NCBI GenBank assembly: GCA_039714435.1
Contig: JBDLJJ010000001.1
Span: 3,717 to 67,716 of the forward strand
DNA: 64,000 bases
Direction of reading: 5' to 3'
From: Gemmatimonadota bacterium
Lineage (GTDB): Bacteria > Gemmatimonadota > Gemmatimonadetes > Palauibacterales > Palauibacteraceae
Shown: in pieces, positions 35,421 to 62,473 of the stretch
Layout: every line of letters starts with the position of its first letter
How positions within the stretch are numbered: position 1 is the stretch's first letter
The notes under the pieces: model-generated
The model's database searches: none
What the model was told of the DNA's origin: nothing
Seen by the model: the letters and a program-made list of their open reading frames with translations, nothing else
Position numbers and translations under genes: made by a program

Positions 35421-38400
35421 ATGGTTTCCACACGTCGTACGATGCAGGGAGCTTTCGCTTCCGCTCTTGCGCTCCTCCTCTTGGCCGCGCCAGCCGCAGC
35501 CCAGCAGACGACGGGAGCAATCCGCGGCACGGTCTCGGCCACTACTGGCGAGCCAATTGCGGCTACCGAAATGACCGCAACGAACGTCGCGACTGGTGTT
35601 CGCCAGGCCACGATCTCTGGGGCCAACGGCAGGTATATCTTCCCGTCGCTCCAGGTCGGACGGTATCGCGTAGAGGCGAGGCGGATCGGCTACCAGGCGC
35701 TGGTCCGGGAATCGATCCGGGTGTCGCTCGGCGGAACGGTGGTGCAGGATTTTGCCATGGAAGTCAGCGCGGCGGAGCTTGATCCGATCGTGGTGGCCGG
35801 CGCGAGGCCTCTTATCGATCCGGCTGAGACTGGTGTCGTGGACCTGGTCAGTTCGGAGGAAATCAACGCTATCCCCGCGCTGGGCCGTAATTTCTCCGAC
35901 CTGGTGGCTCTGTCGCCGAAGGTGGGAGTTTCGGCCGGCGACGGTACAGGCGGAAACCTTTCGCTGGGCGGCGGACGCCGCGGTGCGAATCTCGTTCAGA
36001 TCGACGGCGCGGGTTCGACCGGAACGTTCTTCGGCGGTGAAGCGCGCGGATCGGACCGCATTCCGTTCGCCTTCTCTATCGAGAGCGTACAGGAGTTCCA
36101 GGTCGTGTCCAACGGATTCGACGTGGAGTTCGGCTTCTTCACAGGCGGCGTAATCAACGCGGTCACCAAGTCCGGCACTAATGAAGTGCACGGCTCGCTG
36201 TTCGGATACTTTCAGGACGATCAGTTTACGCGCGCCGATTTCCAGGGTCGATCGGCCGACTTCAAATCGCGGCAGCTCGGCGGCACCTTGTCGGGTCCCC
36301 TTATTCGCGACAAGCTTCACTTCTTCGTCGCCGTGGAGCGCCAGGACCGGGATCAGCCGATCTTCGGTCTTCCGGCGCCCGGTACCGCTCCTGACCCGAC
36401 GACGCGCGTCCATCCGGACAGCGTGGCGCGGTTCCTGGAGATCCTGGAAAGGGTTTACGGCGTAACGGACGCGGCTGGACAAATCAATCAGACGCAGGAC
36501 GAATGGTCGGTGTTCGGCAGGCTCGACTGGCAGCTCAACGACAAGCACCGGCTGACCCTTCGCCACAACTACACCGATCTCGAGCAATTGGGCGATCGGG
36601 TAAATCCAGATGAGACGATCCTCAACGGTGGGGTGTTCAACAACACCAGCAACTCGTTCGTGGCTCAGTTGAACTCGGTGTTCACTCCGACTGTATGGAA
36701 CGAGTTCCGCGGTCAGTACGCTACTGAGCCGAGGCCGCGTACGGCCAATACCCTGCTTCCCGAGGCCGAGGTCAACGTCACGAGCGACTTCGGTGGCGGC
36801 GAGACTCAGTCCCTGCGGGGCCTTGAGTGCTGCAACGACGCGGTTCTTCCGAATAACCTCGAGGAAACCACGATCGAGCTGAGCAACAGCCTGCACATTC
36901 TGGCCGGCGACCATGAGGTCAAGCTGGGCGGAATCTACAATCGTTTTGACTATGTGAATTTCTTCTTCTTCAATCAGCAAGGTCAGTTTGACTTCAACAG
37001 TCTGGAGGACTTCGAGAATCAGCAGCCGGACGACTTCAACAGAAATCTTCCCAATCCGGGTCCGGACGGACAGTTCTTTACGGATGACGACGTCGGCCCG
37101 TTGGCGGACTACGCGACGAGCGAGGTTGGGCTGTACATTCAGGATACCTGGTCAGCTGGCGACAAGCTCAGCATCCAGGCGGGTGTCCGGTTCGACTTTA
37201 CCAAAATGCTCGATTCGGCTCCGCTCAACTCCCAGCTCGTGACTGACCTTGGTATTAGCACCGATTTTCGCCCGGACGACAACAATATCTCACCGCGCCT
37301 GAGCTTCACCTACGATCCGACAGGTGAAGGCAGCAGCATCATTCGCGGTGGCGGCGGCCTGTTCTTCGGTCGGTTCCCATCGGTGCTCTATTCGAACTCG
37401 CTGCTCAACACAGGCGGCAACCAGCTCGGGCTGTTCTGTGATGACGATGAGGTGCCGTTCCCGGATTATCAGGCGTTCGCGGCTGACCTGACCAACATTC
37501 CGACGGCGTGCGCTGGCGGCGGCGGTGCTTCCCCCCCGACCGCGGACATCAACACGTTCTCGCCGGATTTCGAGTACCCGAAGACATTTAAGGCCAGCCT
37601 CGGGTACGAGCAGGAGATCGGTGAGGGCTTCAAGCTCGACTTCGACTTCTTGCTCGCGAATACTACCAGCAACTTCTCCGTACAGGATCAGAACCAGGGT
37701 CCCGAGTTGTTCCGGTCAGGCATCGAGAATCGCCCGGTGTTCTCCACCGTTCGATCTTCAGGCAGTCCCTCGTCGAGCGCCGGCCGAATCACGAACAACT
37801 TTGACGAAGTATTGGTGCACGTCAGCAACTCAGAGTCGCGGACATACCAGCTTTCGGTCGGTCTCTCGCAGCGCGGAGAGACATTCAGTTGGCAAACTGG
37901 ATACACGTACTCTGATAGCAAGGACAACAACTCCTACTCCTGCTGCACCACGACGACGGGTATTTTCGAGCAGACAACAGCAGGAAACGTCAACTTCATC
38001 GGCGATCGCGGCGATGACGTTGAGGGTAACTGGGGCACGGCTGACTTCAACCGCAAACACACGTTCGTGCTTTCAGGGAACGCCGCCCTGCCGGCCGATT
38101 TCGAGATCAGCGGAATCTGGAGAACCTTCTCCGGGCGGCCGTGGACCGCCGTCGTCGACGGCAACGTCAACGGTGACCGTGACTTCGGAAACGATCGGGC
38201 GTACATCGGAACCAATCTGGTGTTCGACGATCCGGCCGCGGATGTGGCCCAGCTGAACGAGCACATGGCCAACCATAGCTGTTTGCGCGAAGCAGAAGGT
38301 CGAATCATCGGCCGCAACACCTGCGAAAATGACTTCTTTACACAGGTGGACATGCGGCTGCGCAAAGGATTCAACATCAAAGGCAACCAGAAGTTCGAGA

Positions 38401-38630
38401 TCATAGTAGACGCGTTCAACGTGCTCAACTTGATCAACGACGATTGGAGCCGTCAGATCGGAGTGGGATCGTTCAGCGATGAGACAGAGCTGCTCTCCGT
38501 GGAAGGCTTCGACTCGGCGACCAATACGTTCGTCTACTCGGTCAATCCGAGCTTCGGTGAAGAGAGCGATCTCAACCGGTTCCGGACCAATCAGGGCACG
38601 CTGCAGCTGGGCGTGAAGTACGTCTTCTAG
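35421..38630 (+). CDS. TonB-dependent outer-membrane receptor with an N-terminal CarboxypepD_reg-like domain.
   Basis: 1069 aa with a signal peptide and a CarboxypepD_reg segment (GTVSATTGEPIAATEMTATNVATGVRQATISGANGRYIFPSLQVGRYRV). It has a plug and a 22-strand barrel ending in the C-terminal aromatic ...LGVKYVF. Its GC is lower than the surrounding genes. Confidence 0.85.
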   Translation: MVSTRRTMQGAFASALALLLLAAPAAAQQTTGAIRGTVSATTGEPIAATEMTATNVATGVRQATISGANGRYIFPSLQVGRYRVEARRIGYQALVRESIRVSLGGTVVQDFAMEVSAAELDPIVVAGARPLIDPAETGVVDLVSSEEINAIPALGRNFSDLVALSPKVGVSAGDGTGGNLSLGGGRRGANLVQIDGAGSTGTFFGGEARGSDRIPFAFSIESVQEFQVVSNGFDVEFGFFTGGVINAVTKSGTNEVHGSLFGYFQDDQFTRADFQGRSADFKSRQLGGTLSGPLIRDKLHFFVAVERQDRDQPIFGLPAPGTAPDPTTRVHPDSVARFLEILERVYGVTDAAGQINQTQDEWSVFGRLDWQLNDKHRLTLRHNYTDLEQLGDRVNPDETILNGGVFNNTSNSFVAQLNSVFTPTVWNEFRGQYATEPRPRTANTLLPEAEVNVTSDFGGGETQSLRGLECCNDAVLPNNLEETTIELSNSLHILAGDHEVKLGGIYNRFDYVNFFFFNQQGQFDFNSLEDFENQQPDDFNRNLPNPGPDGQFFTDDDVGPLADYATSEVGLYIQDTWSAGDKLSIQAGVRFDFTKMLDSAPLNSQLVTDLGISTDFRPDDNNISPRLSFTYDPTGEGSSIIRGGGGLFFGRFPSVLYSNSLLNTGGNQLGLFCDDDEVPFPDYQAFAADLTNIPTACAGGGGASPPTADINTFSPDFEYPKTFKASLGYEQEIGEGFKLDFDFLLANTTSNFSVQDQNQGPELFRSGIENRPVFSTVRSSGSPSSSAGRITNNFDEVLVHVSNSESRTYQLSVGLSQRGETFSWQTGYTYSDSKDNNSYSCCTTTTGIFEQTTAGNVNFIGDRGDDVEGNWGTADFNRKHTFVLSGNAALPADFEISGIWRTFSGRPWTAVVDGNVNGDRDFGNDRAYIGTNLVFDDPAADVAQLNEHMANHSCLREAEGRIIGRNTCENDFFTQVDMRLRKGFNIKGNQKFEIIVDAFNVLNLINDDWSRQIGVGSFSDETELLSVEGFDSATNTFVYSVNPSFGEESDLNRFRTNQGTLQLGVKYVF

Positions 38631-44692: not shown

Positions 44693-45418
44693 ATGAAAGA
44701 GCCTCAGCCGTTCGGGTTCGGAGACATCTCCGTTCCCGTTCAGACATTCGGCAACGGGTCGCGGCGAGTGCTGTTTCTTCCCGGCATGGGGGTCCACCCC
44801 AGTTACTACGAGGAGAGCCTGGCGCGGCTGTCTCGACATGTTCGCCTCATCACCCCGGATCTCTCGTTCCGCAGCCGCGGTGAGCTACCGCAGGCGATCA
44901 CGGAATACCGCAGGCTCGCAGCCGAACTCGCCCGCGCCTTTGGACCTCTGGATGCGACCGTGGGCCACTCCTTCGGTGGCCTGGTCGCGCTGCTGTGCGA
45001 GCAGCACGCTATCGCACTGTCTCCGACCGTCCCGGTTCGGATCGGCTGGATAAGGAAGTTCGGGAGGTCCGTCCTCATGCAGCTGCGGGAGTACGCAGGG
45101 CTGGAGGGCCGAAAAGGACCCAGGTGGGCGTTCGGCCTGCTCCGCGACTACGCGGGCAGAGTCTTCACGCGGCCAGATCTGCTGTTTCCGGTTGTCGGCG
45201 CGACGATGGGAAACCCGGCAGAGCCGTTCCTGCCCAGCGCTCCCAGGGCCCACGTCGTCCTGGCGGAGCGTGATCATCTGTACACCCGTAGCGAGTCGGA
45301 GCGGTACCTCGAGGCGGGGGGAGAGAGTATGGTCGTGCGCACGGTGCAGCGAGGCCACGGGTGGCCTGGCACCGATCCAGTCCTATTCGAACAGCAGGTG
45401 CTCCAGGCCCTGGACTAG
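44693..45418 (+). CDS. Alpha/beta-fold hydrolase.
   Basis: 241 aa with a nucleophile elbow GHSFGG and an N-terminal VLFLPGMG oxyanion region. Confidence 0.6.
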   Translation: MKEPQPFGFGDISVPVQTFGNGSRRVLFLPGMGVHPSYYEESLARLSRHVRLITPDLSFRSRGELPQAITEYRRLAAELARAFGPLDATVGHSFGGLVALLCEQHAIALSPTVPVRIGWIRKFGRSVLMQLREYAGLEGRKGPRWAFGLLRDYAGRVFTRPDLLFPVVGATMGNPAEPFLPSAPRAHVVLAERDHLYTRSESERYLEAGGESMVVRTVQRGHGWPGTDPVLFEQQVLQALD

Positions 45419-45443: not shown

Positions 45444-46634
45444 CTACGGGCGGCGAATCGAGATCGTAAGCGCCGTGCGGGTGAATGACTCCTCAAAGCC
45501 GGACACTGCCGCCTCCCCTCTCGAACCGACCTCGCCGGACAGGTCCAGCACGGCCTTTCCACCAGCCGTCGAGAGTCCAAGCCCGAACGTAACTGCGGTC
45601 TCTCTGGCCTGCCGCCTCCCGATCGGAAAGAACGGAAGGTCCGCAAAACGGTACCCCAGGCGAAGCGGGACGCTAGCCGAACCCAACGTCAGATGGCTCC
45701 ATTCGATTCCGCCGCCGGCCCAGGTAACGCTCGCTACTCCGACGCTGTTGAAGTCGCCCTTGGCTCTGGACCACTGACTCCAGCCACCCGACGCGGCCAG
45801 CAGGAGCTTCGGAGACAGGCGCGCCGAACCGCCGAAAGCTACTTCGATGGGCATGTCGAACTGTTGCGTCACGCCTGTGTCCTGCTGGTCGGCCTCGAGC
45901 GCTGATGTCCGGCTCACCGAGCCGCCGATTCGAAACCGGCCATCGGCCTCCCAGGCCAGGCCACCTCTGATCCGGCTCGCGGCGTACGTCAGCCTCGAAA
46001 AGTCCTCCACCGGTGTCAGTGTGGGCATGACGCCCGTGGGGTCCGCTTCGAAGCGCCGCGATACGACCTGCCGCAGCGCCCCGAACACCGGCCCACCGGA
46101 GACACCGACGGTCAAAGGTCCCACGCGGCGGGCAAGCGATATGTCCAGGGAACTGATGCCGCCATCGTGTTCACGCTTCTCTTCGAAGGGGAATCGCCCG
46201 AAAGAGGTCACCAGGGTGTCGGGAAATACGACCAGAAAGTCCTGGTCCAGTTCGTTTCGCAGCCCCACTCCGACCACCCAGCGCCCGATCGGGACCACGG
46301 CCTGCATGAGACCGATCCGGCTTCGCTTGGCCTGATCTTCGCCGCCCGCCGTGACGAGAGTGATGCTTTCCGGATTCAGCGACAAGCCGATAACGTTGCC
46401 CGCGAAGCCCGTCAGGTCGGCGGGATTGAGAAGGTTGAGCGAGCCCCCCAGCAAGCCGACAGCCGCACCACCGAGCGCAGCCGTTCGCCCATCCGTGGCG
46501 GCCACGGGCGCCCCGAGTCCGAGCGACGTGACCGGCACCTGGGCCTCGAGCACGTCTGGATGTGCCATCAGGGCCAAACCCGACGCGAGAACGGACAAGG
46601 CCTGCAGGGCCAGGGGGCGTGGTGCGTTCATCAT
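45444..46634 (-). CDS. Uncharacterised secreted / outer-membrane beta-barrel-like protein.
   Basis: 396 aa with a signal peptide (LALQALSVLASGLALMA). It has alternating Gly/aromatic-rich amphipathic segments consistent with a beta-barrel (FadL/PorV-like size). Its start overlaps the upstream lipoprotein gene (ATGA). Confidence 0.4.
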   Translation of the reverse strand: MMNAPRPLALQALSVLASGLALMAHPDVLEAQVPVTSLGLGAPVAATDGRTAALGGAAVGLLGGSLNLLNPADLTGFAGNVIGLSLNPESITLVTAGGEDQAKRSRIGLMQAVVPIGRWVVGVGLRNELDQDFLVVFPDTLVTSFGRFPFEEKREHDGGISSLDISLARRVGPLTVGVSGGPVFGALRQVVSRRFEADPTGVMPTLTPVEDFSRLTYAASRIRGGLAWEADGRFRIGGSVSRTSALEADQQDTGVTQQFDMPIEVAFGGSARLSPKLLLAASGGWSQWSRAKGDFNSVGVASVTWAGGGIEWSHLTLGSASVPLRLGYRFADLPFFPIGRRQARETAVTFGLGLSTAGGKAVLDLSGEVGSRGEAAVSGFEESFTRTALTISIRRP

Positions 46635-47893
46635 GGCAGCTCGAACTCGGTGGGTGGTGTCACGATGAGGCGCAGTCCGGGCTGGAAAGCCGGCGCCGAT
46701 TGAGAAGATCCGAACTCCCAGCGTCCGAGCGTCGTCCCTTCGGGAATCGTTCGCAGACCTAAATTAATAAACTGGATCGTGTCGTTGCTCGACCAGCGCT
46801 GCAACAGGGCCGTGGCAGGAAACTCCAGACTCACACCAGCCGCCAGAGAATCGGGATCGAGAACTTCCGCTCCGAGCCCCAGATTGGGTCCAACCGGCAC
46901 CTTTTCTCCTTCGGTGAGCGGATCTCCGGTTACTTCGAAAGCACCAGCGGCAATCGACTGGGTCAGTGCGAACGGGTCCGTGGGAGTAGCCAGCGGGCGG
47001 AGCTGGAACACCGCGTCGTTGATCACCGCGCCTCGAAGCGCGAAACCCGCCACAGATTCCGGAATTTGAAACCTTATGTACGCCCGGGCGGCCGGAAGAC
47101 CTCCGAGCCGCAGACCGAGGCCGACTGCAGGCGGCGGCGGATCGAAAATGAATGTCTGCTCGGAAGGGGTTCGCGCTACCTGAACGACCGTGTCGCCCGC
47201 CGCGGCGCCCAACAGCAGGGCCGTCGCCGACACCTGTAGCACTACACCACGGGCCTCCATGGAGAGCGCCAGACCGGGTTCGCCATCGGTGGCCCTCCAG
47301 GCCGTGAAGAGAGAGTCGATGTTGCCCGACAGGGGAACGAAAATCGTGTCGGGAAAGGTCTCCGCAGTCAGAGTGTCGAGGTCAAGCGTGCCCAGGAGCG
47401 CGCCCAGGTCTCCCCCAGGGATCATCCAGGGGACGCCAGCCGAGGCCTCGCTCCAGGTCGCCTCTCGTTCCACGAAAGAACCGTCCAGGCTGAAGGCCGA
47501 AAGCGAGAACGGGGCAGCGAAAGCGGAATCAGGCAGGACCGAGAGAACGGTATCCACCACGAGCCTCAGGGACGCTGCAACGAACGAGTCGACCGCAACC
47601 CGAAGCGTCGTGTCGACCTGCACCGAGTCGGGAATGGTCGAGAACCGCGCCAGCATGCGCGAATCCAGACCGTCTTGATCCGCTACTATGCTGAACGGCG
47701 CCGCGCCCGGGATCGCGTAGCCGACATATGTCGTGTCTTCAAACGACACGAAGTCAGCCGCCCGAAGCTCGATTTCTACGGTTGGCGCCGAGCTCCCTGG
47801 AGCGTCTTCCGGGGAGACATCCGTAATCGCGTCCTCGGTGCAACCGGCCGCCGTCAGCAGCGAGAACAAAATCGCCGCACGTATACGGGTCAC
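46631..47893 (-). CDS. Uncharacterised lipoprotein.
   Basis: 420 aa with MTRIRAAILFSLLTAAGCTEDA (lipobox) and no recognisable catalytic motifs. It is co-transcribed with the downstream beta-barrel-like gene. Confidence 0.45.
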   Translation of the reverse strand: MTRIRAAILFSLLTAAGCTEDAITDVSPEDAPGSSAPTVEIELRAADFVSFEDTTYVGYAIPGAAPFSIVADQDGLDSRMLARFSTIPDSVQVDTTLRVAVDSFVAASLRLVVDTVLSVLPDSAFAAPFSLSAFSLDGSFVEREATWSEASAGVPWMIPGGDLGALLGTLDLDTLTAETFPDTIFVPLSGNIDSLFTAWRATDGEPGLALSMEARGVVLQVSATALLLGAAAGDTVVQVARTPSEQTFIFDPPPPAVGLGLRLGGLPAARAYIRFQIPESVAGFALRGAVINDAVFQLRPLATPTDPFALTQSIAAGAFEVTGDPLTEGEKVPVGPNLGLGAEVLDPDSLAAGVSLEFPATALLQRWSSNDTIQFINLGLRTIPEGTTLGRWEFGSSQSAPAFQPGLRLIVTPPTEFELP

Positions 47894-48306
47894 GGTAGCT
47901 GGCCCGGACCGAAATGTCCCGGTAGAAGCTCGCTCAAGCCCCAGGACTGTCTGGCGCCGGATGTTCCCTCACTGATCACCTCGAGGTCGACTCCGAACTC
48001 CGACAGCGCCTGTCTGCACATTCCGCAGGGCGTGACAGGATCCGCGCCGCTGGAACATATGAAGATCTTTCGGAATCTTTTGGCCCCGGCGGCGACTGCC
48101 GCTCCGAGAGCAACACGCTCGGCGCACACGGATACCGGGTAGGAAGCATTTTCCACATTGCAACCCCCGAATACTCGACCGTCTTCCGCCTCCAGGGCCG
48201 CACCCACATGAAATTTCGAATATGGTGCATAGGCGCGTTCCATAGCCTGGTGCGCGCATGTTGCCAGCTCTGCTATGTCCAGGTCCGTCTCCTCCCTAGT
48301 CTTCAC
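47890..48306 (-). CDS. cdd: Cytidine deaminase.
   Basis: 138 aa with Zn-binding CAERVA and PCGMCRQ motifs. Confidence 0.8.
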   Translation of the reverse strand: MKTREETDLDIAELATCAHQAMERAYAPYSKFHVGAALEAEDGRVFGGCNVENASYPVSVCAERVALGAAVAAGAKRFRKIFICSSGADPVTPCGMCRQALSEFGVDLEVISEGTSGARQSWGLSELLPGHFGPGQLP

Positions 48307-48324
48307 CTAGTGTTCAGATATCTG

Positions 48325-49464
48325 TCACGACTCGTCGCCGACCTCCAGGCGGGGCAAGCGGGCCGCCCAGCCTGTGAGAATCTCATAACCGATCGTCCCA
48401 CTGGCCTGAGCGAGCTTTTCAAGGCCGATGGAGCTCTGTCCATCGTTACCGAGGAACGTGACGATATCGCCTCTTCTCACGCCCGGAATCCCCGTCACGT
48501 CCAGGACAGTCGAATCCATACACACCGCGCCCCTGATCGGTGCCACCTGGCCGGCGACCAGGGCGCTGCCGCTGTTCGACAGCCGCCACGGAAGCCCGTC
48601 TCCGTACCCTATGGCCACCGTGGCGAGCCGTCCATCCTCCGGCGCTGTGTACGTGGCGCCATAGCTCACCGTCTGTCCGGCCCGAACATCTCTCACGCCC
48701 GCGACTCGCGCCCTGACCGACAGGACTGGACGCGGCGCCTCAGCGCCGGCAACCGCGCCTCCGTACAGAAAGTACCCGGTTCGGACGACGTCAGCCGTGA
48801 GCGACGGATACAGGATCGACGCCGCGCTGTTGGCTGCGTGCACGAAACCCGGCTTGACACCCGACTCCCGCATGGCCTCTACGACCCGCTCAAACCGGCT
48901 CCACTGGATCTGCGTGGCCCGTTCGTCCGCTCCGGCCGAGTGGAAGTGCGTAAACGTGCTGCCCAGGTGCAAGCGCCCGCCATCTACGTGCCTGGCCAGA
49001 TCGGCAATCCAACTGTCGGGGTCCTCCCAACCGAAGCCGCTCCGGCTCATTCCCGTATCGATCTCGACATGAACGGTCGGGACCAGGCCGCGTTCCCGCC
49101 CTGCTGCGGCCAACGACTCAGCGGCCGCTATGTCGGGCAACGCTGGCTCCAGACGTTCACCTAGTAGGGCTGCCAGCTCGGTGGGCAGGGTCGGAGCGAA
49201 CACGAGTACCCTTCCGGCCCAGCCCGCACTGCGAAGAGATGCTCCCTCGGCCGCGGTCGCCACACCGAATCCCCACGGGCCCAGTGGTCCGAGTGTCCGC
49301 ATCACCCACTCGGCACCAAGTCCGTATCCGTCTGCCTTGACCATTGGCACTACCTGACAACCAGCCGGGAGATGCGTCTCAATCTGCCGGTAGTTTGCAC
49401 ACAACGCGCCAGAGTCCACTTCGACCCAGGCGCGTTCTCGACCATCGTTTGACACTGTTTTCAA
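48325..49464 (-). CDS. alr: Alanine racemase.
   Basis: 379 aa with a PLP-Lys motif VVPMVKADGYGLG and an alanine-racemase C-terminal domain. Its TTG start lies only 23 bp from the divergent mazG ATG. Confidence 0.85.
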   Translation of the reverse strand: MKTVSNDGRERAWVEVDSGALCANYRQIETHLPAGCQVVPMVKADGYGLGAEWVMRTLGPLGPWGFGVATAAEGASLRSAGWAGRVLVFAPTLPTELAALLGERLEPALPDIAAAESLAAAGRERGLVPTVHVEIDTGMSRSGFGWEDPDSWIADLARHVDGGRLHLGSTFTHFHSAGADERATQIQWSRFERVVEAMRESGVKPGFVHAANSAASILYPSLTADVVRTGYFLYGGAVAGAEAPRPVLSVRARVAGVRDVRAGQTVSYGATYTAPEDGRLATVAIGYGDGLPWRLSNSGSALVAGQVAPIRGAVCMDSTVLDVTGIPGVRRGDIVTFLGNDGQSSIGLEKLAQASGTIGYEILTGWAARLPRLEVGDES

Positions 49465-54158: not shown

Positions 54159-55072
54159 GAGCTGAGTAGTTTCTCCACGTAACGGTCACTGTCGAAGGGG
54201 ATCAAGTCTGCGGTCGTCTCACCCAGACCAACATAGCACACCGGCAGGCCGAGTTCCTGGACCACTGCGGCAGCGGTTCCACCCCGGGCCGTGCTGTCGT
54301 ACTTGGACAGAACAAGCCCGGTAAGATCCAGTCGGGATCCGAAATCTCTGGCCTGCTGAAGAACGTTCTGGCCTGACGTGGCGTCCACCACGAGAAGTCT
54401 CTCGTGCGGCGCCCCCGAAATCTGGCGGCATAATACGCGGTCAATCTTGTCGAGTTCGTCCATCAGGTCACGCTGTGTATGAAGGCGGCCGGCCGTGTCC
54501 ACTATCAGATGGTCTATCCCGCGCGCCCGAGCCGCTTCCGCCGCATCGTAAGCCACCGACGCCGGATCCGCGCCGGGTTGTCCCCCTACCATGCCGACGT
54601 CGAGTTCGCCGGCCCACCTCCGGAGTTGCTCCTGAGCCCCACTTCGAAACGTGTCGGTCGCCGCGAGCAGGACCGAGCGCCCCTCCGATTTCGATCTGTA
54701 GGCCAGCTTCGCGGCTGTGGTAGTCTTTCCGGTGCCGTTTACGCCCAGGAGCAGAGTGACGAACACGCCGCCTGTATCCGGCCACTCGGCAGAGCACGTG
54801 GCTGCGGACAGGACCGCTCGGATTCGGCTCCCAAGCATGGTTCGAACCTCGGCCTGAGACCGGATCTTGCCCCGTGTGATGTCCTGCTCGAGCTGGCCTA
54901 CGAGCTGTTCCGTAAGTTCCACCCCGAAGTCGGCCTCCAGTAATATTCTTTCCAGCTCATCCAGAGTATCCGCGTCTACGCCACGGGCCAGCGTTTCGAT
55001 ATCCGCTAGAGCGACGTCGACGATCTTCTGCCACAGAGACCGCTTCTGCCGCAGTCTTCCAATATCGTTCAC
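54155..55072 (-). CDS. ftsY: Signal recognition particle receptor FtsY.
   Basis: It has an NG domain with GVNGTGKTTTAAKLA. The start is set at the GTG at 55072, which forms a GTGA overlap with the stop of the upstream VWA gene. The track's 55141 start would overlap that gene by 72 nt. Confidence 0.85.
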   Translation of the reverse strand: MNDIGRLRQKRSLWQKIVDVALADIETLARGVDADTLDELERILLEADFGVELTEQLVGQLEQDITRGKIRSQAEVRTMLGSRIRAVLSAATCSAEWPDTGGVFVTLLLGVNGTGKTTTAAKLAYRSKSEGRSVLLAATDTFRSGAQEQLRRWAGELDVGMVGGQPGADPASVAYDAAEAARARGIDHLIVDTAGRLHTQRDLMDELDKIDRVLCRQISGAPHERLLVVDATSGQNVLQQARDFGSRLDLTGLVLSKYDSTARGGTAAAVVQELGLPVCYVGLGETTADLIPFDSDRYVEKLLSS

Positions 55073-57027
55073 CTGAGTCCTATTCGTCGCCGCCAGATCC
55101 ACTCCAGACACAGTAGTAGAACAGCCGCCGCCAGCGGCCACCAGGGTCTCTCGCTGGCCCGTGAGGGCGATGCGCCAGCCAGCGGCTGCGAGGCCAGCGT
55201 AAGCGGTTCCTGCCTGTCGCGGGGCAGCAGTTCGGCCAGCGTGGGAATCGCAAACGGCCTCTGAGAAGCCATGGACGAGCCGCGTGTTTTTCCGTCAGCC
55301 CGGTAACTCCAGGCGCCCGGTTCCAGTAAGGGGCCGTCGACGGTGCGCTCTCCTCCGCCCGGCAGGGCCGGGGAAGAGTCCGACCACACGGCCGCGCCGC
55401 TGGAGTCACGGACCGTCAGGGCAAGCTCGGTCACTCCGGCCGCTATGCGCCACCCGATCCGGTCTCTTCCGCCCTCACCTACCTCGAGCAGGGTCACCGG
55501 AGTGCCGGCCTCGTCCTCCAGCAGCCAGCCCATCATGGAGGCGTACAGAGCCCGATACGCCTGCCGGGCCGCCGCTCCGCGCGTAGCCCAGCGCCACATG
55601 CCGGTTCCCGCGATCACGCCGACCCTGCGGTTTCCCGTCTCCAGTATTTGGCCGATCGGCCGGGTCGGGCCGCGGCGATCGCGCTGAGCCACGAGAGGGG
55701 ACCAGCCGTTTCCAGTCTCCAGAGCCAGGAGAGTACTCAGCGGCGGTAAGGCCGACCCGTCGAGTCCCGCCAATAGCGCCGCCACCGGACTTCCGGGAAT
55801 CTGCTCGCCCACGTACCACTCACCGGCCAGGGCTTCGCCGACGGACAACCCAAGCCCCGGGATCTGGCCTGGCTGCCGGGCCAGAAAGAGTACTCGGGTA
55901 TGTGAACGAATGGCGGACTGCAGCCAGCCGGGGACCCGGTTCGGATCCCCCTGCACCACGAGAAGCTTTGCGGCTCGGATATCCGCGCGCACGGCACTCA
56001 GCGGCACGTGCGGACGTGGGCTGGCGGATACTCTGACAAACTCTCCGGTGCCGATCTGCAGATACCCGGTCGCTCCACCCGCGCTGGCCCGGGAGGCTAT
56101 GGGCATGAGTGAACGCAGCTCCCAGTCCGGATCCAGCGAAACGGCAACCACGCCGCTGGCGCGCGGCCAGACTTGAATCCAGGCGCTGGCGCTAAGCGCA
56201 GCGCCATACGGATCCGCGCCCTCCGCCAAGCGAACATCCACGCGCCGCCACTCGGCCGAATCCGCCCGGGACGTGAAGGTCAGCGGCAGGCTGCCTCTTC
56301 CGGTACGGCCGTGGCCCGGAACGGGGATCAGGGCCTGTACGTCAGGCTGGTCGCCATGCGACACGATGACAGGTACTTCAGTGGGTAATTGTTCCCGATC
56401 TCCCGAGGCCGCTATCTCGATTACCGCGATCACGGTGTCGCCGCCCCGAGCACTGGGCGGCAGGGTGATCCCCGCCACTCCTATGCGCGGCGTCGCCTCT
56501 CCCACACGCACCTCGAGCACTCCGAGGCCGCTCTCCGCGGCGAGTCGAGTGGCTTCCTGTAGATCATCAAAACTTCCGTCGGTAACCACGAGCACGCTGT
56601 CCACGCCGCGGCCGCGCGCGGCCGACAGCGCCGGAGCCAGCAATGAGCCGCGGGCCGAGAAGGAGTCAGGGCTCAAAGAGGCGATGTCAGTCCAGGAAGG
56701 GTTGCCGCCGAACAGGAGCACCTGAGCGTCTCCCCTGCCTGACAGCCGAGCCAGCGCTGAGTCGGCGCGAGTCAGCCCACCCGGGCGCAGCGGGAGAAGC
56801 ATGCTGCGAGACTGATCCACCAACCAGACAGTCTCCGCGATCCGGTTGGAGTCTGGCACGACTCCGACGAAAACTGGAGAGCCCAGAACGAGAAAGAGCG
56901 CTGTACCGCGCAGAAGTCCGGCGACTGCACGGCCCCGAACACGCTCTTCCCGCCGGGCGTACCACCAGTAGGTGAGGCCGGAGGCCAGGATCGCCGACAG
57001 AACCAACCATGCGGTGGCGCCCGTCAT
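55069..57027 (-). CDS. BatA-like membrane protein with an N-terminal double-TM domain, a VWA-like region (MIDAS-type DQSRS) and a C-terminal TM anchor.
   Basis: 652 aa with two N-terminal TM helices (AWLVLSAILASGLTYWWY / TALFLVLGSPVFVGVV) and a DxSxS motif in WLVDQSRSM. The C-terminus is ERPWWPLAAAVLLLCLEWIWRRR. Confidence 0.45.
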   Translation of the reverse strand: MTGATAWLVLSAILASGLTYWWYARREERVRGRAVAGLLRGTALFLVLGSPVFVGVVPDSNRIAETVWLVDQSRSMLLPLRPGGLTRADSALARLSGRGDAQVLLFGGNPSWTDIASLSPDSFSARGSLLAPALSAARGRGVDSVLVVTDGSFDDLQEATRLAAESGLGVLEVRVGEATPRIGVAGITLPPSARGGDTVIAVIEIAASGDREQLPTEVPVIVSHGDQPDVQALIPVPGHGRTGRGSLPLTFTSRADSAEWRRVDVRLAEGADPYGAALSASAWIQVWPRASGVVAVSLDPDWELRSLMPIASRASAGGATGYLQIGTGEFVRVSASPRPHVPLSAVRADIRAAKLLVVQGDPNRVPGWLQSAIRSHTRVLFLARQPGQIPGLGLSVGEALAGEWYVGEQIPGSPVAALLAGLDGSALPPLSTLLALETGNGWSPLVAQRDRRGPTRPIGQILETGNRRVGVIAGTGMWRWATRGAAARQAYRALYASMMGWLLEDEAGTPVTLLEVGEGGRDRIGWRIAAGVTELALTVRDSSGAAVWSDSSPALPGGGERTVDGPLLEPGAWSYRADGKTRGSSMASQRPFAIPTLAELLPRDRQEPLTLASQPLAGASPSRASERPWWPLAAAVLLLCLEWIWRRRIGLR

Positions 57028-57051: not shown

Positions 57052-58389
57052 TCAGCGAGCCGGCGAGTTCATCGCCGCGGCTGTACGCTCGATAGCCGGC
57101 TCAGAAGGCGGCTCGGAAGGCGGCGGCGCCACCTGATCCGGAACCGGAATCATGGCCAGCAGCTCCAACGCGGTCTCCCGTACACCGGCAAACGCTGGCA
57201 ACTGTTCTGAATCCAGCGCTTTCGCGGGTGGCAGTTTGACCGTAGCCGGATTCGTTTGACGACCGTTCTGCAGGAATTCGTAGTGAAGGTGAGGCGCGGT
57301 CGCCAGGCCGGTAGCGCCGACTCTCCCTATGATGTCCTCCTGGTCTACGTACTGTCCCACTCGTACACCGATGCGGCTCAGGTGCGCATACCGGGTCACG
57401 ATCCCCCGCGAGTGCGAAAGCTCGACCATCCGCCCGTACCCACCCCAGGTTCCCGCCCTCGTAACGCGCCCGGCAGCCGTCGCCTTAATCCGAGTTCCGG
57501 TCGGCGCTCCGTAATCGGTGCCCAGATGCGGCCTGCGCCGCTTCAGAATCGGATGATACCGGCGACGATTGAAATTACTCGTGACGCGGAACGGCACCGG
57601 ATAGCGCAGGAAGGCACCGCGCAGGGCCTTCCCGTCGGCGTCATAGTACTCCCGCATCTCGGAGCCCCAGACAAATGGGATCGCCGGGAGCGTGTTACCC
57701 CTGTTGATCAGCTCGATCACCATGAAGCGACGTGAACGAAGTGATCCGTCCGGACGTCTCTCTCTCTCGACAGCCACTCGGAACTGGTCACCTTCACGAA
57801 TGTCTCGCGTGAAATCCAACTTCCAGGCGAACACGTCCGCCAGATCATACACGTAGTCCTGAAACTCGCCCGCGGCCAGCTTCTCCACTTCGCCACCCAG
57901 CTTCGCGAACCAGAGACTGGTTTCGATAACGCCGGACAGGAGCAGTGTGTCTGTGGTAACCGGCGTCAGCTCCAGGTCCGCCGTCCAGACCGAGTCCTCC
58001 ACTTCCAGGAGCAATGTGGAATCCGGATTCAGCTTCATGGACATCCGGTGCGGGGGCTCATCCAGCCGTTGCGCGAACTCGACCGAGGCGCCGGGACGCA
58101 GCCGGCGAGGATTCTTGTAGGCGCGCACGACCTCGATCACTTCCAGCGAACCCGAGCCCTCGAACCCGTTGTCGGCCAGGAGCTCCGCCAGGGTCTCACC
58201 GCGCTCCAGTGTGTCGGCGGTCAGGATGGCGGGTGGAGGAGTCGGAACCACGATTCGCCTGGCGACTACGGCCGGGTCGGGCGCCACGACATGCCGCGCG
58301 CCCAGGACGGCACCACCCGTGACCAGCACCGCCCCCAGAGTCCAGGCCGCCCTATTGGCCAACAATGATTTCACCCCTGTCAACCTCAA
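57052..58389 (-). CDS. M23 family (LytM-domain) metallopeptidase.
   Basis: 445 aa with an N-terminal TM/signal. The C-terminal M23 domain has HLGTDYGAPTGTRIKA and HLHYEF. It has a 4-nt overlap with the ftsZ stop. Confidence 0.85.
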   Translation of the reverse strand: MRLTGVKSLLANRAAWTLGAVLVTGGAVLGARHVVAPDPAVVARRIVVPTPPPAILTADTLERGETLAELLADNGFEGSGSLEVIEVVRAYKNPRRLRPGASVEFAQRLDEPPHRMSMKLNPDSTLLLEVEDSVWTADLELTPVTTDTLLLSGVIETSLWFAKLGGEVEKLAAGEFQDYVYDLADVFAWKLDFTRDIREGDQFRVAVERERRPDGSLRSRRFMVIELINRGNTLPAIPFVWGSEMREYYDADGKALRGAFLRYPVPFRVTSNFNRRRYHPILKRRRPHLGTDYGAPTGTRIKATAAGRVTRAGTWGGYGRMVELSHSRGIVTRYAHLSRIGVRVGQYVDQEDIIGRVGATGLATAPHLHYEFLQNGRQTNPATVKLPPAKALDSEQLPAFAGVRETALELLAMIPVPDQVAPPPSEPPSEPAIERTAAAMNSPAR

Positions 58390-59579
58390 TCCATCTGCCG
58401 GCGAATGAATGTCGGAATGTCCAGATCGGCCACCTGCCGCTGACCGGCCAGCCTGCTTCCGATGTCGCTTGCGACGCTCTCTGTCTGGACCGGTGCCATA
58501 GCCACGGTCGCCCCCGCTCTTTCCGGCTGCCCACCTGGTTCCAGCAGATTCAGGCCGTTGCCGAAGTCGGGCTCGGACTCCAGCTGGAACGTCGGACCAG
58601 ACGGCGCGAATTCCTCGCTGTCGGGTCCGAATCCTGTCGCGATCACGGTGACCCGTACCCGGCCTTCCAGCTCTGGTTCATGCACGGCTCCGAAGATCAG
58701 TTCCGCCTCGTCACCTACCGCCTCCTGGACAACCGAATTGATTGTCGTAACCTCGTCAATCGCCAGATCCAGACCGCCGGAGATATTGACCAGAACGCCG
58801 GTCGCGCCGTTGATCGAAATGCTGTCGAGAAGAGGTGAGCATATAGCTTGCTGCGCCGCGTCGAGAGCGCGGCTTTCGCCGGCCGCCTCGCCCGTACCCA
58901 TCAGCGCGGCGCCGCGATTGGACATGACGGTTCGCACATCGGCGAAGTCGACGTTTACCTCACCTGTCACGCTGATCAGATCTGAGATTCCCTGTGTGGC
59001 GTGCAGCAGCACCTCGTCCGCCTTCTTGAGCGCGTCTCTGAATGTCGTCCCCTTTCCAACAACCGACAGTAGTCGTTCGTTGGGTACGACTATCATCGTG
59101 TCCACTCCGGCCCTCAGCTCACGCAGGCCGATCTCAGCGTGCCGCATGCGCTTCTTGCCCTCGAAGTGAAACGGACGGGTGATTATCGCGATGCATAGCG
59201 CCCCGAGCTCTGAAGCGATCTCACCCACAATCGGCGCGGCGCCCGTGCCAGTTCCGCCGCCCATGCCTGCCGTGACGAAAACAAGATCGGCACCTTCGAG
59301 GGCCTGTCTGACCTCTTCGGCGTTCTCCGCCATCGCCTGGCGTCCGACTTCCGGCCGCGCCCCCGCACCCAGGCCCCGAGTGAGCTTCTTGCCTATCTGA
59401 AGTTTCAGATGAGCGTTGCACCGCTTCAGCGCCTGAGCGTCCGTATTGATCGCGACGAACTCGACGCCATCCAGGTTTTCATCGATCATGCGGTTTACGG
59501 CGTTGCCGCCTGCTCCTCCCACTCCCACAACTTTCATTCGGGCGTTTCGGGCAATGCTGTCATCGAATTCGAAAATCAT
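58386..59579 (-). CDS. ftsZ: Cell division GTPase FtsZ.
   Basis: 397 aa with the tubulin signature GGGTGTGAAPIV and N-terminal MKVVGVGGAGGNAVNRM. Confidence 0.95.
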   Translation of the reverse strand: MIFEFDDSIARNARMKVVGVGGAGGNAVNRMIDENLDGVEFVAINTDAQALKRCNAHLKLQIGKKLTRGLGAGARPEVGRQAMAENAEEVRQALEGADLVFVTAGMGGGTGTGAAPIVGEIASELGALCIAIITRPFHFEGKKRMRHAEIGLRELRAGVDTMIVVPNERLLSVVGKGTTFRDALKKADEVLLHATQGISDLISVTGEVNVDFADVRTVMSNRGAALMGTGEAAGESRALDAAQQAICSPLLDSISINGATGVLVNISGGLDLAIDEVTTINSVVQEAVGDEAELIFGAVHEPELEGRVRVTVIATGFGPDSEEFAPSGPTFQLESEPDFGNGLNLLEPGGQPERAGATVAMAPVQTESVASDIGSRLAGQRQVADLDIPTFIRRQMD

Positions 59580-59628
59580 GTTGGGGCTCCCCCGTTAAGG
59601 TGTCGTGGTCGATAAGAGTGTGTTCGGT

Positions 59629-60861
59629 TCAAAAGAAATCGCGCAGCCAATCCGTGACTCGAGCCAGTGTGCGTCCTGCCATTCCAGGCCCCCTCCCCAA
59701 TTCACAGCGCTGGCCGTACAAGGCCAGGCCTACAGCGGTGGCGTATCGAGGGCTGCGGACGGCTTCGACGGGTCCGGTCAGACCGGCGCCCGGCGTACCG
59801 AGCCGGACTGGCATGTTGAACACGTCCTGAGCCAGCTCCAGCGTGCCCTCCAGCATGGCTCCCCCGCCGGTCAGCACCGCCCCGGCGGGCAGGTCATCGA
59901 TCAGTGACCGCTCGTCGAGCTCCTCGTAGACCAGGCCCAGAATCTCGTCCAGGCGCTGCTCGATGATGTGGGCCAAGAGCTCGCGGGAGACTTCCCTGGT
60001 CCTGTCCGGAGTGGGCCCTGGAATCTGCAGTGTCTCGCTCGCATCCACGCTGGCCGTGCGAGCCACTCCGTGCTTGCGCTTCAGGGCCTCCGCTGCCGCG
60101 CTCGACACCCCCAGGCCTTTCACGATGTCGTTCGATACGGTGCCAGAGCCCCAGGGATACGAGGCCAGCAGGCGCAGGCGCTCGTCCTTGAAAACGATGA
60201 CTTCGGTAGCGCCTCCGCCGATCTGGATGAGAGCCACTCCCGCCTGGCGCTCCTGCGCTGTAAGAACGGCCTCGCTGGTAGCCAGCGACCCGAGGACGAG
60301 GCCGTCGGTAACGAGCCCTGCCCGGTCCACGGCCTTCCTGAGATTCTGGCACACGGTGGTCCCTGCCGTGATCACGCACACCTGTGTTTCCAGTCGCGTC
60401 GCGGCCATGCCCACGGGATCCTGGATCCCGCACCGACCGTCTACGCTGAAGTCGACTGGAATGGCGTGAATCAGCTCCTTGTCCGGTGGAATGGCGATAG
60501 CACGCGCCACGTCGTGGACGCTGTCTACGTCTTCTTCGGTTACCTCGGGGTCCGAAACAGCTACTACCCCGTTCGAGCAGCTTACCTCGACATGTGTGCC
60601 CGACAGGCTCGCGTATACGCAGCGGACTTCGAGGCCCGCCATCTCCTCGGCTTCGCGTACCGCCTGCCGAATGGACGCAGTGGCAGCCTCGATATTCGTA
60701 ACAGCCTGGTTTCGAACCCCCTCGGTGGGCACCAGGCCCGCGCCCAGCACCTGAGGCGGTTCGCTGCCGGTATCCCAGGCGCTCGGCACACCCAGTAATA
60801 CGGCCGCCGTCTTCGTCGCTCCGACGTCTACCGCGGCCACGAAGTTGTCTCCCCCGATCAA
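59629..60861 (-). CDS. ftsA: Cell division protein FtsA.
   Basis: It has an actin-like ATPase fold (VAAVDVGATKTAAVL). The start is set at the TTG at 60861, which forms a TTGA overlap with the ftsQ stop and gives about 411 aa. The track's 501-aa version would overlap ftsQ. Confidence 0.9.
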   Translation of the reverse strand: MIGGDNFVAAVDVGATKTAAVLLGVPSAWDTGSEPPQVLGAGLVPTEGVRNQAVTNIEAATASIRQAVREAEEMAGLEVRCVYASLSGTHVEVSCSNGVVAVSDPEVTEEDVDSVHDVARAIAIPPDKELIHAIPVDFSVDGRCGIQDPVGMAATRLETQVCVITAGTTVCQNLRKAVDRAGLVTDGLVLGSLATSEAVLTAQERQAGVALIQIGGGATEVIVFKDERLRLLASYPWGSGTVSNDIVKGLGVSSAAAEALKRKHGVARTASVDASETLQIPGPTPDRTREVSRELLAHIIEQRLDEILGLVYEELDERSLIDDLPAGAVLTGGGAMLEGTLELAQDVFNMPVRLGTPGAGLTGPVEAVRSPRYATAVGLALYGQRCELGRGPGMAGRTLARVTDWLRDFF

Positions 60862-61580
60862 GCTCCCTCCTTCTTCGGCTTTGCCGGACGGACTACTACC
60901 TGTCCAGAGAATCGCGCGTCTGCTTCGAGAACCGGATCCGAACTCGGCCGGCTGCTGAGTGCTGCTTCGATTCGGCGCAGGCCCAGCAGGGGATCCGACA
61001 AGGGAAGAACCATTCGGCCCGCTGGGCTGGCTTCGAGGAGAATGAGCTCGACTCCGTCCCCAGCCGAGGTCAACCTGGCCTCCGAAATCGTACCGAAAAC
61101 GGCTGGCCGCGCCTCGAGCAGTTCCGCCAGGCACCTCACGACCGTTCGGTCAGATCCCGGCTTGGGCACGATCGGCAGATCGAGCATGTGCGTGGCCGGA
61201 TCGATCGCCAGGGGCTGCCCTTCCCCGTCTATCGGAACGAGTCTTGGAGTGGCTGCCACAGCTACTGGAACCACTTCGTCAATTCGGAAGGTCACCCGGC
61301 GCAGCCCGCTCTTGCGGGCACTCGCGGCGACAACCAACGGGTGAGCTTCTACGCGTCTTTCCCAGATCGACGGATCGTCCCAGATCGACGATTCGGATCC
61401 CAGCGCTGCCAGCTCCCTTATCTCATCGGGACTCGTGAAGATCGTGCCTTCCACGGCTATTTCAGCCACCGTGAACAGAGGCAGATGAGACAGCATGGCG
61501 GGTCCCCAGTCGGGTAGGGTGGCGATCAGAAACACCGCGATTCCGGTCAACACGAGCCGGCGTCGATTGACCTTGCTCAC
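60858..61580 (-). CDS. ftsQ: Cell division protein FtsQ/DivIB.
   Basis: 240 aa with an N-terminal TM (LVLTGIAVFLIA) and a POTRA domain (FTVAEIAVEGTIFTSPDEI). Confidence 0.8.
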   Translation of the reverse strand: MSKVNRRRLVLTGIAVFLIATLPDWGPAMLSHLPLFTVAEIAVEGTIFTSPDEIRELAALGSESSIWDDPSIWERRVEAHPLVVAASARKSGLRRVTFRIDEVVPVAVAATPRLVPIDGEGQPLAIDPATHMLDLPIVPKPGSDRTVVRCLAELLEARPAVFGTISEARLTSAGDGVELILLEASPAGRMVLPLSDPLLGLRRIEAALSSRPSSDPVLEADARFSGQVVVRPAKPKKEGA

Positions 61581-62473
61581 GCGGCCACTCCCAGAGAGCT
61601 CAATTCATCCGCTTCGAAGCCCCACAGCTGGATCTCCGGAGCCAACCAGATACCGAGTTGCTCATGGACCCGGCGGCGGCTCTCACGCATCAGCCATATC
61701 ACGTCGTCAGCGGTCGCCCCTCCCTCGTTCACGATGAAATTGGCGTGCTTCGCGCTGACCCTGGCCCCACCGCGGCTGACGCCCCGCATTCCGGCCTGAG
61801 AAAGCACCTCCCAGGCCGATCCGTGCGGAGGGCCAGGATTCTTCCACGTGGAGCCGCAGGAAGGCAGCTCGTAGACCTGGGACTCGACTTTTGACCGGCG
61901 GCGCTCCTGATGCGCGCGCTGTACGCGCTTCAGGTCGCCCTGCGGAGCCGCGAGGCGGGCCGCGACGAATACCCAGTCGGTGGGTACGCCCGTGCCCCGG
62001 TAGACCGGCTTCGCCTCCTGAGGTGTGATGCGCACGCGCTCTCCGCCTGGGGTCACCGCCTCGGCCCAGACGACTCGATCCCATATTCCCTCGGTGGCGG
62101 AACCCGCGTTCATGCGAAGCGCGCCACCAATTGTCCCGGGGACGGCCTCGAGGAAGTCGAACCCGGTCCGGCCTGTGCGCCTGGCCTCTCCCACCGTGCC
62201 CGGGATGCCAGCCGCCGCGCCCACTTCCAGCGCGTCGGGCTCGAGCTGGACGCTGCCGAAGTCCCCTGCCAGCATCAGCACATCGCGCTGCACGCCGCGA
62301 TCTGACACCAGAACGTTGGCGCCCCAGCCGAGCACGAAGTGGCCGTGAGCGGCCGGATCGGCGAGGGCGGCCACGAGCTCAGCCTCGGTCTCCGGGCGGC
62401 CGAAGCGCACGGCCGGTCCACCGATCCGGTAGCGAGTATGGAGCGCCAGGCTCATATCAGTCTCCCACCGCAT
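61577..62473 (-). CDS. murB: UDP-N-acetylenolpyruvoylglucosamine reductase.
   Basis: 298 aa with an FAD-binding domain (GWGANVLVSDRG) and a MurB C-terminal domain. Confidence 0.9.
   Translation of the reverse strand: MRWETDMSLALHTRYRIGGPAVRFGRPETEAELVAALADPAAHGHFVLGWGANVLVSDRGVQRDVLMLAGDFGSVQLEPDALEVGAAAGIPGTVGEARRTGRTGFDFLEAVPGTIGGALRMNAGSATEGIWDRVVWAEAVTPGGERVRITPQEAKPVYRGTGVPTDWVFVAARLAAPQGDLKRVQRAHQERRRSKVESQVYELPSCGSTWKNPGPPHGSAWEVLSQAGMRGVSRGGARVSAKHANFIVNEGGATADDVIWLMRESRRRVHEQLGIWLAPEIQLWGFEADELSSLGVAA

Follow-up and report, generated by a model that had tools for sequence, protein, structure and literature searches.

A probable Gemmatimonadota version of the BamH–BamG subunit pair of the BAM complex, encoded by overlapping genes

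The window, by which we mean the whole stretch of 64,000 nucleotides of DNA that was analysed, carries two overlapping genes for a lipoprotein and an outer-membrane beta-barrel that very probably constitute the Gemmatimonadota version of BamH and BamG. These proteins are extra subunits of the BAM complex that were described in Bacteroidota by cryo-EM in 2025 (PMC12611786, PMC12578637), and the literature of that year also reports BamG and BamH in six of the seven other FCB phyla. It is clear from our results that the pair is an unannotated, divergent member of a known system and not a new system. By analogy with the solved complexes, we infer physical association with BamA, exposure at the cell surface, and a role in the biogenesis of outer-membrane proteins. 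The original prediction had described the pair as uncharacterised and as matching nothing known, and had named confident homology of either protein to a characterised family as evidence against this. Such homology was found: the barrel is a BamG-family protein by sequence and fold (HMM, profile, and structural comparison) and the lipoprotein is a fold homologue of BamH, so the claim of novelty is refuted on its own terms. That the relationship was missed is understandable, since Pfam is empty for both proteins and the lipoprotein is recognisable by fold only.

Arrangement and conservation of the locus

The two open reading frames, their neighbours (an alpha/beta hydrolase on one side, cdd and alr on the other), and the export signals of both proteins are as the original prediction had described them (Table 1). 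The letters at 46634..46631 read gctgccATGAtgaac, so that the ATG of the barrel gene and the TGA of the lipoprotein gene overlap by 4 nt, an arrangement that had also been predicted and that implies co-expression. A further overlap, of cdd with the lipoprotein gene (GTGA), had gone unnoticed; alr, cdd, the lipoprotein gene, and the barrel gene thus make up one co-directional block. A promoter and terminator scan of this block gave no signal above chance, searches of the window against Rfam and for tRNAs returned no matches, and neither a BamA nor a BamD gene is encoded within the window.

Table 1. Positions of the gene pair, its sequence features, and its neighbours in the window
Feature	Position	Strand	Description
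bamH-like lipoprotein gene	46631..47893	minus	420 aa, GTG start; two beta-rich domains, one DNRLRE/CBM96-like
Lipoprotein signal peptide (residues 1–17) and lipid-anchor Cys18	47840..47893	minus	MTRIRAAILFSLLTAAG followed by C; Cys18 codon at 47842..47840
Acidic stretch directly after Cys18	47822..47839	minus	T-E-D-A-I-T; like the Bacteroidota surface-lipoprotein export signal
bamG-like gene	45444..46634	minus	396 aa, ATG start; FadL-family outer-membrane beta-barrel
Barrel signal peptide (residues 1–31)	46542..46634	minus	Ends …LSVLASGLALMAHPDVLEA before Q32; putative cleavage LEA/Q32, site inferred
Conserved mature N-terminal tail/putative plug of barrel (residues 32–74)	46413..46541	minus	Q-VPVTSLGLG…DGR.AALGG…NPAD, from alignment
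ATGA overlap, lipoprotein TGA / barrel ATG	46631..46634	minus	4 nt, read from the sequence
GTGA overlap, cdd stop / lipoprotein GTG start	47890..47893	minus	Read from the sequence; cdd named by Pfam
alr and cdd, co-directional, upstream of the pair	47890..49464	minus	Context only, no functional link inferred
cdd	47890..48306	minus	Named by Pfam
alr	48325..49464	minus	Upstream neighbour
Alpha/beta hydrolase gene, convergent	44693..45418	plus	Pfam Abhydrolase_6

Homologue searches recovered 124 barrel homologues and 1,195 cluster representatives of the lipoprotein, the word-indexed searches returning the window's own clade only. The closest named relatives found belong to Ca. Palauibacter and to unclassified Gemmatimonadota MAGs. 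Of the more than 1,000 homologues recovered, all that are named bear the label "hypothetical protein", as do the two proteins themselves, and a cluster look-up of distant lipoprotein relatives likewise returned only hypothetical proteins of Gemmatimonadota. A survey of the gene order covered 32 Gemmatimonadota loci, 31 of which include upstream DNA and could be scored, and the lipoprotein gene lies directly upstream of the barrel gene in all 31. The 4-nt overlap is kept at 27 of the 29 scorable junctions, usually in the context CC[A/G]TGA, where the start codon takes its first base from the codon of an invariant terminal Pro. The same adjacent arrangement, with a GTGA overlap, recurs in a distant locus (L033, from a lineage with 28–30% identity) that was found by a metagenome scan with P0296, and the barrel encoded there matches the BamG NCBIfam model (E 1.1e-13); a metagenome scan with P0250 found no locus. 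This pairing is far beyond a chance arrangement of open reading frames. The wider gene order, mazG< alr> cdd> lipoprotein> barrel> <hydrolase miaB>, is repeated in most of the 32 loci.

The adjacency of the two genes also bears on whether the pair corresponds to the constitutive subunits or to a homologous module of the BamG2/BamH2 type, which would be expressed conditionally or serve another envelope task. In Bacteroides and Flavobacterium, the main bamG and bamH are unlinked, whereas the paralogous pairs (BT_1785/1786 and Fjoh_1686/1685, respectively) are adjacent, as are the genes in the window; these paralogues are dispensable and their expression is not detectable (PMC12578637; Liu et al. 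2025). However, the genes listed as BamG and BamH are themselves adjacent in Gemmatimonas, Ignavibacterium, Salinibacter, Fibrobacter, Chitinophaga, and for one of the two BamG copies of Caldithrix (Liu et al. 2025), and adjacency thus looks ancestral. Two further observations argue against a paralogous module: the window pair sits inside a housekeeping block that is strictly conserved across 32 genomes, and the genome scan, which used a single peptide pattern, found one locus per genome. We consider a BamG2/BamH2-type pair improbable.

The barrel and its N-terminal tail

The expectation of an outer-membrane barrel of FadL/PorV size is borne out by the AF2 model, which has a pLDDT of 88.3 and adopts a FadL-family fold. 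A hydrophobic helix in the model, at residues 7–22, falls inside the signal peptide, and the model has several very long strands (22–26 residues), which would fit with an extracellular pillar. The DSSP string of the model contains about 17 segments, against 14 strands, a difference that was not reconciled and is not counted as evidence. In an NCBIfam scan, the sole match of the barrel was the BamG model NF053685 (E 1.4e-22), with residues 35–393 aligned to positions 9–388 of the 397 in the profile. The score of 80.4 bits is far under the equivalog trusted cut-off of 250 bits, which is an annotation threshold and not a biological property, and we therefore class the barrel as a divergent homologue within the BamG family rather than an NCBIfam equivalog. 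The same model was matched by all 26 barrel homologues scanned (best E 2.2e-32).

Comparisons with solved structures point in the same direction. The top matches of a sequence-profile search of the PDB were BamG chains (9hiv_F/9hj3, 9n2d_B, and 9hjm_F, with E of 2.4e-14, 6.3e-14, and 5.9e-7), followed at a distance by TbuX/TodX (E 8e-4 to 1.6e-2) and PorV (E 0.096). When the single sequence was used, BamG of Bacteroides thetaiotaomicron (Bt) was the sole significant match, and the N-terminal tail lay inside the alignment. Foldseek placed the three BamG chains as the top three matches of the model (TM 0.73, E 4e-17 to 1e-15), with FadL/TodX at TM 0.49–0.60 and E ≥7e-11. Conservation in the barrel is highest at the mature N-terminus. 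Q32, its predicted first residue and the first conserved one in the homologue alignment, is nearly invariant, and the segment contains the invariant residues P34, T36, G39, L40, G41, D48, R50, G55, G60, L61, and P71. Residues 32–74 align with residues 27–69 of Bt BamG (NSPYTRYGYGD…NPAS), the conserved BamG-specific N-terminal extension (PMC12578637), although the mature N-terminus of the window barrel is four residues shorter.

These results bear directly on two other readings. In the first, the genes would form a nutrient-uptake unit, a miniature SusCD in which a FadL-type channel admits hydrophobic or amphipathic compounds and a surface lipoprotein captures a polysaccharide or another ligand with its CBM-like domain. 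Against this, the barrel is nearer to BamG than to transport FadL proteins both in sequence (1e-14 versus 1e-3) and in fold (TM 0.73 versus ≤0.60), a Pfam scan at E ≤ 1 gave no match to the barrel, Toluene_X (PF03349) included, the best-conserved part of the barrel is the tail that aligns with the pore-blocking extension of BamG, and the locus is a housekeeping one that lacks catabolic genes. In the second, the barrel would be a PorV/PorQ-like shuttle or anchor of type IX secretion, with the lipoprotein as its cargo or partner. PorV likewise belongs to the FadL family of barrels and uses its extracellular loops to bind proteins (PMC12578637), and the NCBIfam model PorV_fam weakly matches 15 of the 26 barrel homologues (best E 5.5e-6). 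However, the window barrel itself has no PorV_fam match at E ≤ 1, PorV in the PDB is matched at E 0.096 as opposed to 2e-14 for BamG, no PorV chain occurs among the top 50 fold matches, and T9SS genes are absent from both the window and the conserved block.

The lipoprotein and its fold

Like the barrel, the lipoprotein has a clear export signal, the lipobox LLTAAG/C. Cys18 is invariant in the sets of 31 and of 96 homologues, and a Cys in a lipobox-like context is present in 31/31 close and 93/96 broad homologues. The residues that follow are also well conserved, the sequence C-TED being nearly invariant (T19 and E20 at ≥90%). Surface lipoproteins of Bacteroidota follow a rule of at least two D/E among the six residues after the Cys (PMC12578637), and positions +2..+7 hold at least two acidic residues in 28/31 close homologues and in 69/93 of the broad set. 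The start of the mature protein is consistent with putative export to the cell surface.

The predicted structure is an elongated two-domain beta fold that includes a domain resembling DNRLRE and chondroitin-sulfate CBMs, and its best structural match is solved BamH. The match spans the whole lipoprotein, about 330 residues, and extends beyond the CBM-like domain alone, which is a further point against the uptake unit. Identity in the fold alignment is 10–11%, and profiles built from 31 and from 96 lipoprotein sequences retrieved no BamH chain from the PDB sequences. The sole PDB profile match, serine hydroxymethyltransferase (E 0.032), was dismissed as noise. The homology of the lipoprotein to BamH thus rests on fold. 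Pfam DUF4270 is matched by 0 of the 96 homologues, and the window lipoprotein has no Pfam match of any kind; we therefore name the protein BamH-like, homologous or analogous to BamH in structure, and not a DUF4270 member.

The lipoprotein also speaks against type IX secretion, as it has a lipobox and the Pfam and NCBIfam scans detected no T9SS C-terminal domain family. Given the relative similarities and the gene context, we reject both the FadL-transporter and the PorV/PorQ readings, the former being very improbable and the latter extremely so.

A different possibility is that the pair is a minimal, overlap-coupled BamGH module that may work unlike the canopy of Bacteroidota or may have no attachment to BamA. 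[quoted passage not shown] We regard this as unlikely and favor the reading of the pair as BamH–BamG subunits of BAM.

Proposed mechanism and comparison with known systems

For the BamH–BamG reading, the following steps are drawn by homology with the solved complexes of Flavobacterium, Bacteroides, and Porphyromonas. In the outer membrane, the FadL-fold barrel would pack behind the BamA barrel, on the side away from the lateral gate. The pore and lateral opening of the FadL-fold barrel itself would be filled by its conserved N-terminal tail, and we propose on this basis that this barrel is a scaffold and not a transporter. After export, the lipoprotein would receive its lipid at Cys18 and be flipped to the cell surface, where it would dock on the barrel's extracellular extensions while its lipidated N-terminal tail is held at the BamA–BamG interface. 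Its two-domain beta-rich arm would then extend over BamA as an extracellular canopy, and outer-membrane proteins whose surface-exposed parts are large may fold beneath it; candidate clients include barrels of the TonB-dependent/SusC-like type and complexes between barrels and lipoproteins. The 4-nt start/stop overlap would couple the translation of both subunits and favor their production at 1:1. The more general point of the original prediction, that lipoprotein/barrel pairs form complexes, was in our judgment right.

The practical value of these results lies in the annotation of proteins that have so far been called hypothetical. FCB-type BamH outside of the Bacteroidota can be recognised by its fold and its conserved coupling to bamG, but not by sequence, and this probably explains why one of the 2025 papers confines BamH to the Bacteroidota (PMC12578637) and the other finds it across the FCB superphylum. 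Overlapping bamH and bamG genes in a housekeeping block also provide a simple genomic marker of the module in Gemmatimonadota. The pair raises no new biological question beyond those of the 2025 papers.

Among FadL-family proteins, the FadL/TodX/TbuX channels share the fold family of the window barrel, but their similarity to it is below that of BamG at every level, and they are lone transporters rather than scaffold subunits. PorV and PorQ of the T9SS are FadL-family barrels that bind partner proteins at the cell surface, and their similarity to the window barrel is marginal. The solved BamG proteins are those of F. johnsoniae (Fjoh_1412, 9N2D chain B), B. thetaiotaomicron (BT_4367, 9HIV/9HJ3 chain F), and P. 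gingivalis (Pg; 9HJM chain F). Like these, the window barrel is a secreted, FadL-family barrel of ~400 aa whose gene is paired with that of a BamH-like lipoprotein and whose N-terminal tail carries an alignable P-x-T-x-x-G-x-G … NPA pattern; its structural-alignment identity with them is only 15–16%. Solved BamH is represented by 9N2D chain C, 9HJ3 chain G, and 9HJM chain G, of which the Bt and Pg chains are labelled DUF4270 in the PDB. The window lipoprotein, at 420 aa, compares with 517–520 aa for BamH of Fj and Bt and 439 aa for that of Pg. The canopy partners BamM and BamI–K are lineage-restricted even inside the Bacteroidota (2025 BAM papers, including PMC12578637). A further described counterpart is found in Gemmatimonas aurantiaca, a member of the same phylum, in which BamG and BamH are likewise encoded by an adjacent pair, GAU_1453/GAU_1452 (Liu et al., Nature 2025, Supplementary Table 1), and the window pair is most likely a putative orthologue of these genes in another lineage.

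Gene block and surroundings

The two genes of the module lie on the minus strand with exactly the limits that the original prediction had assigned to them, and the stop/start overlap that it had claimed is visible in the junction sequence gctgccATGAtgaac, where the barrel ATG (46634..46632) shares bases with the lipoprotein TGA (46633..46631). A second overlap, which had been missed, joins the lipoprotein gene to its upstream neighbor, with the cdd stop overlapping the GTG start as GTGA. Because of this overlap, and because alr lies 18 bp upstream of cdd on the same strand, alr, cdd, and the lipoprotein and barrel genes form a single co-directional block of four genes, limited by a divergent mazG on one side and a convergent alpha/beta hydrolase gene on the other. 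This arrangement couples cdd, a nucleoside-salvage gene, to an envelope module. Both module proteins are annotated as hypothetical in the Gemmatimonadota MAG (ABFS14_00190 and ABFS14_00185).

Features of the window discussed in the text
Feature	Coordinates	Strand	Details
Secreted 1,069-aa protein	35421..38630	+	N-terminal CarboxypepD_reg; OMP_b-brl_4/TonB-dependent-receptor-like barrel (Pfam 1.7e-73)
Barrel ORF	45444..46634	-	396 aa; ATG start
Lipoprotein ORF	46631..47893	-	420 aa; GTG start
cdd (cytidine deaminase)	47890..48306	-	Pfam dCMP_cyt_deam_1
alr (alanine racemase) + cdd	47890..49464	-	Directly upstream of the bamH/bamG-like pair
652-aa ORF	55069..57027	-	GC3 0.74, coding-like; hydrophobic N-terminus
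M23/Csd3-like peptidase	57052..58389	-	Downstream of dcw cluster
murC, murB, ftsA, ftsZ	58386..63962	-	End of dcw-type cell-division cluster
ftsA ORF	59629..61134	-	501 aa

The window is ordinary chromosome, containing murC, murB, ftsA, ftsZ, recG, comEC, miaB, fbp, purine-biosynthesis genes, and genes for an M23 peptidase, an Asn/Asp-type tRNA synthetase, HtrA, and a subtilase; scans of the window detected no RNA families or tRNAs. The ftsA ORF has an extension of ~170 residues N-terminal to the first FtsA domain, and its call may be over-long. The 652-aa ORF, for which Pfam gave no match, shares its strand with ftsZ and the M23-peptidase gene and follows closely downstream of them; recG lies ~0.9 kb farther along. 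The stretch encoding the 1,069-aa protein has the lowest GC content in the window (0.58–0.59). The FCB-type BAM, with its canopy, has been proposed to help fold large outer-membrane barrels, its putative clients (PMC12611786), and this protein falls in that class.

Conservation of the pair

The module is real and well conserved. Scanning species-representative genomes with the barrel profile yielded 32 loci, all from Gemmatimonadota, most of which retain the order mazG (opposite strand), alr, cdd, lipoprotein, barrel, then hydrolase (opposite strand) and miaB. A lipoprotein homolog lies directly upstream of the barrel gene in all 31 loci that have upstream sequence, and the barrel start codon sits on the lipoprotein stop in a 4-nt overlap at 27 of the 29 scorable junctions. 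The usual junction across these loci (L001–L032) is CC[A/G]TGA (46631..46636 in the window). Members of the lipoprotein family have an invariant Pro at the C-terminus (…F-x-L-P), and the third base of this Pro codon also opens the barrel ATG or GTG; thus, the C-terminus of one protein and the start codon of the next are jointly constrained.

An exhaustive profile search showed the lipoprotein family to be large, with 1,195 cluster representatives passing E ≤1e-3 and 117 of these passing E ≤1e-30. It includes a broad tier of full-length relatives at ~27% identity, and every member that carries a name is a hypothetical protein from Gemmatimonadota. The module, including its overlap, is conserved well outside the clade of the window: a distant locus (L033) encodes a lipoprotein homolog (30% identity, N-terminus C-ADE) whose end, …QLP-TGA, overlaps a GTG start (GTGA), and the 408-aa product of that downstream gene has 28% identity to the window barrel and matches BamG at 1.1e-13.

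Relationship to BamG and BamH

Structures of BAM complexes published in 2025 for Flavobacterium johnsoniae (PMC12611786) and for Bacteroides thetaiotaomicron and Porphyromonas gingivalis (PMC12578637) describe BamG as a 14-strand FadL-family barrel on the rear of BamA, with an extended N-tail running through its own lateral opening, and BamH as a surface lipoprotein docked on the extracellular strands of BamG, its lipidated tail packed between BamA and BamG (PMC12611786, PMC12578637). The extracellular canopy or dome above the BamA folding site is built on BamH as its scaffold, and in F. johnsoniae neither BamG nor BamH is dispensable (PMC12611786, PMC12578637).

The barrel protein is homologous to BamG by both sequence and fold. 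Its N-terminus is a hydrophobic signal peptide whose last residues, …HPDVLEA, precede Q32, and a Pfam scan gave no match. Its sole NCBIfam match is the BamG family beta-barrel-assembly machinery protein, NF053685, over its full length (residues 35–393 aligned to positions 9–388 of the 397-position profile; E 1.4e-22), with a score of 80 bits that is under the equivalog cut-off. This model was matched by all 26 aligned homologs (best 2.2e-32). Against all PDB sequences, the family profile found BamG of B. thetaiotaomicron (9HIV/9HJ3 chain F, E 2.4e-14, nearly full length), F. johnsoniae (9N2D chain B, "Bam G", 6.3e-14), and P. gingivalis (9HJM chain F, 5.9e-7), and for the window barrel alone, B. 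thetaiotaomicron BamG was the only significant match, with the N-terminal tail within the alignment. The same three chains ranked top in Foldseek, a comparison proposed in the original prediction, with a confident AF2 model (pLDDT 88.3, pTM 0.80) as query (TM 0.73, E 4e-17 to 1e-15). Ranked lower were TbuX, TodX, and CymD (8e-4 to 7e-2) and PorV (0.096) in the PDB profile search and ~25 FadL/TodX/TbuX entries in Foldseek (TM 0.49–0.60, E ≥7e-11), and PorV_fam was matched weakly by 15 of the 26 homologs (best 5.5e-6). The FadL-transporter and PorV-shuttle readings are disfavored by these relative similarity scores and by the housekeeping gene context. The mature N-terminus, the most conserved stretch of the barrel family (Q32, P34, T36, G39-L40-G41, D48, R50, G55…P71), aligns with NSPYTRYGYGD…NPAS of B. 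thetaiotaomicron BamG, a conserved, BamG-specific N-terminal extension (PMC12578637).

The lipoprotein begins with MTRIRAAILFSLLTAAG followed by C-TEDAITD. The first residues of the mature protein, C-T-E-D, hardly vary within the family, and 28 of 31 close homologs and 69 of 93 broad ones conform to the acidic N-terminus rule. No library yielded a significant match for the window lipoprotein itself, its single signal being a weak NCBIfam DNRLRE-domain match (E 0.032, residues 344–408), which is real at the family level, as 24 of 31 homologs match the model (best 8e-8). The closest structural relative of BamH is 8WAB, "a DNRLRE domain-containing protein" (PMC12611786). Profiles built from 31 and then 96 family members found no solved structure among PDB sequences, and none of the 96 matched Pfam DUF4270. 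At the level of modeled structure, the lipoprotein has the whole two-domain fold of BamH, beyond a common CBM domain, and is homologous to BamH by fold.

The original prediction had called the module uncharacterized, but the published work on BamG and BamH explains it. We consider it likely that the two genes encode the BamH–BamG module of the source Gemmatimonadota organism and are translationally coupled; a BamG2/H2-like pair with a non-core role is improbable. By analogy, the barrel would bind BamA as a membrane scaffold and the lipoprotein would be a surface-exposed arm above the folding site, with a presumed role in outer-membrane protein biogenesis.

BamG and BamH are reported to be conserved in six of seven other FCB phyla (PMC12611786), with adjacent genes in Gemmatimonas aurantiaca (GAU_1453, BamG; GAU_1452, BamH) and in Ignavibacterium, Salinibacter, Fibrobacter, Caldithrix, and Chitinophaga (PMC12611786, Supplementary Table 1); our literature search found no other publication on the module in Gemmatimonadota. 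The 2025 papers differ on BamH, which is confined to Bacteroidota in one (PMC12578637) and spread across the FCB superphylum in the other (PMC12611786), and this may be because a family of 1,195 representatives is unrecognizable by Pfam DUF4270 or by comparing sequences with solved BamH. [quoted passage not shown] The pair is a new, divergent, and unannotated representative of the already published BamG/BamH system.
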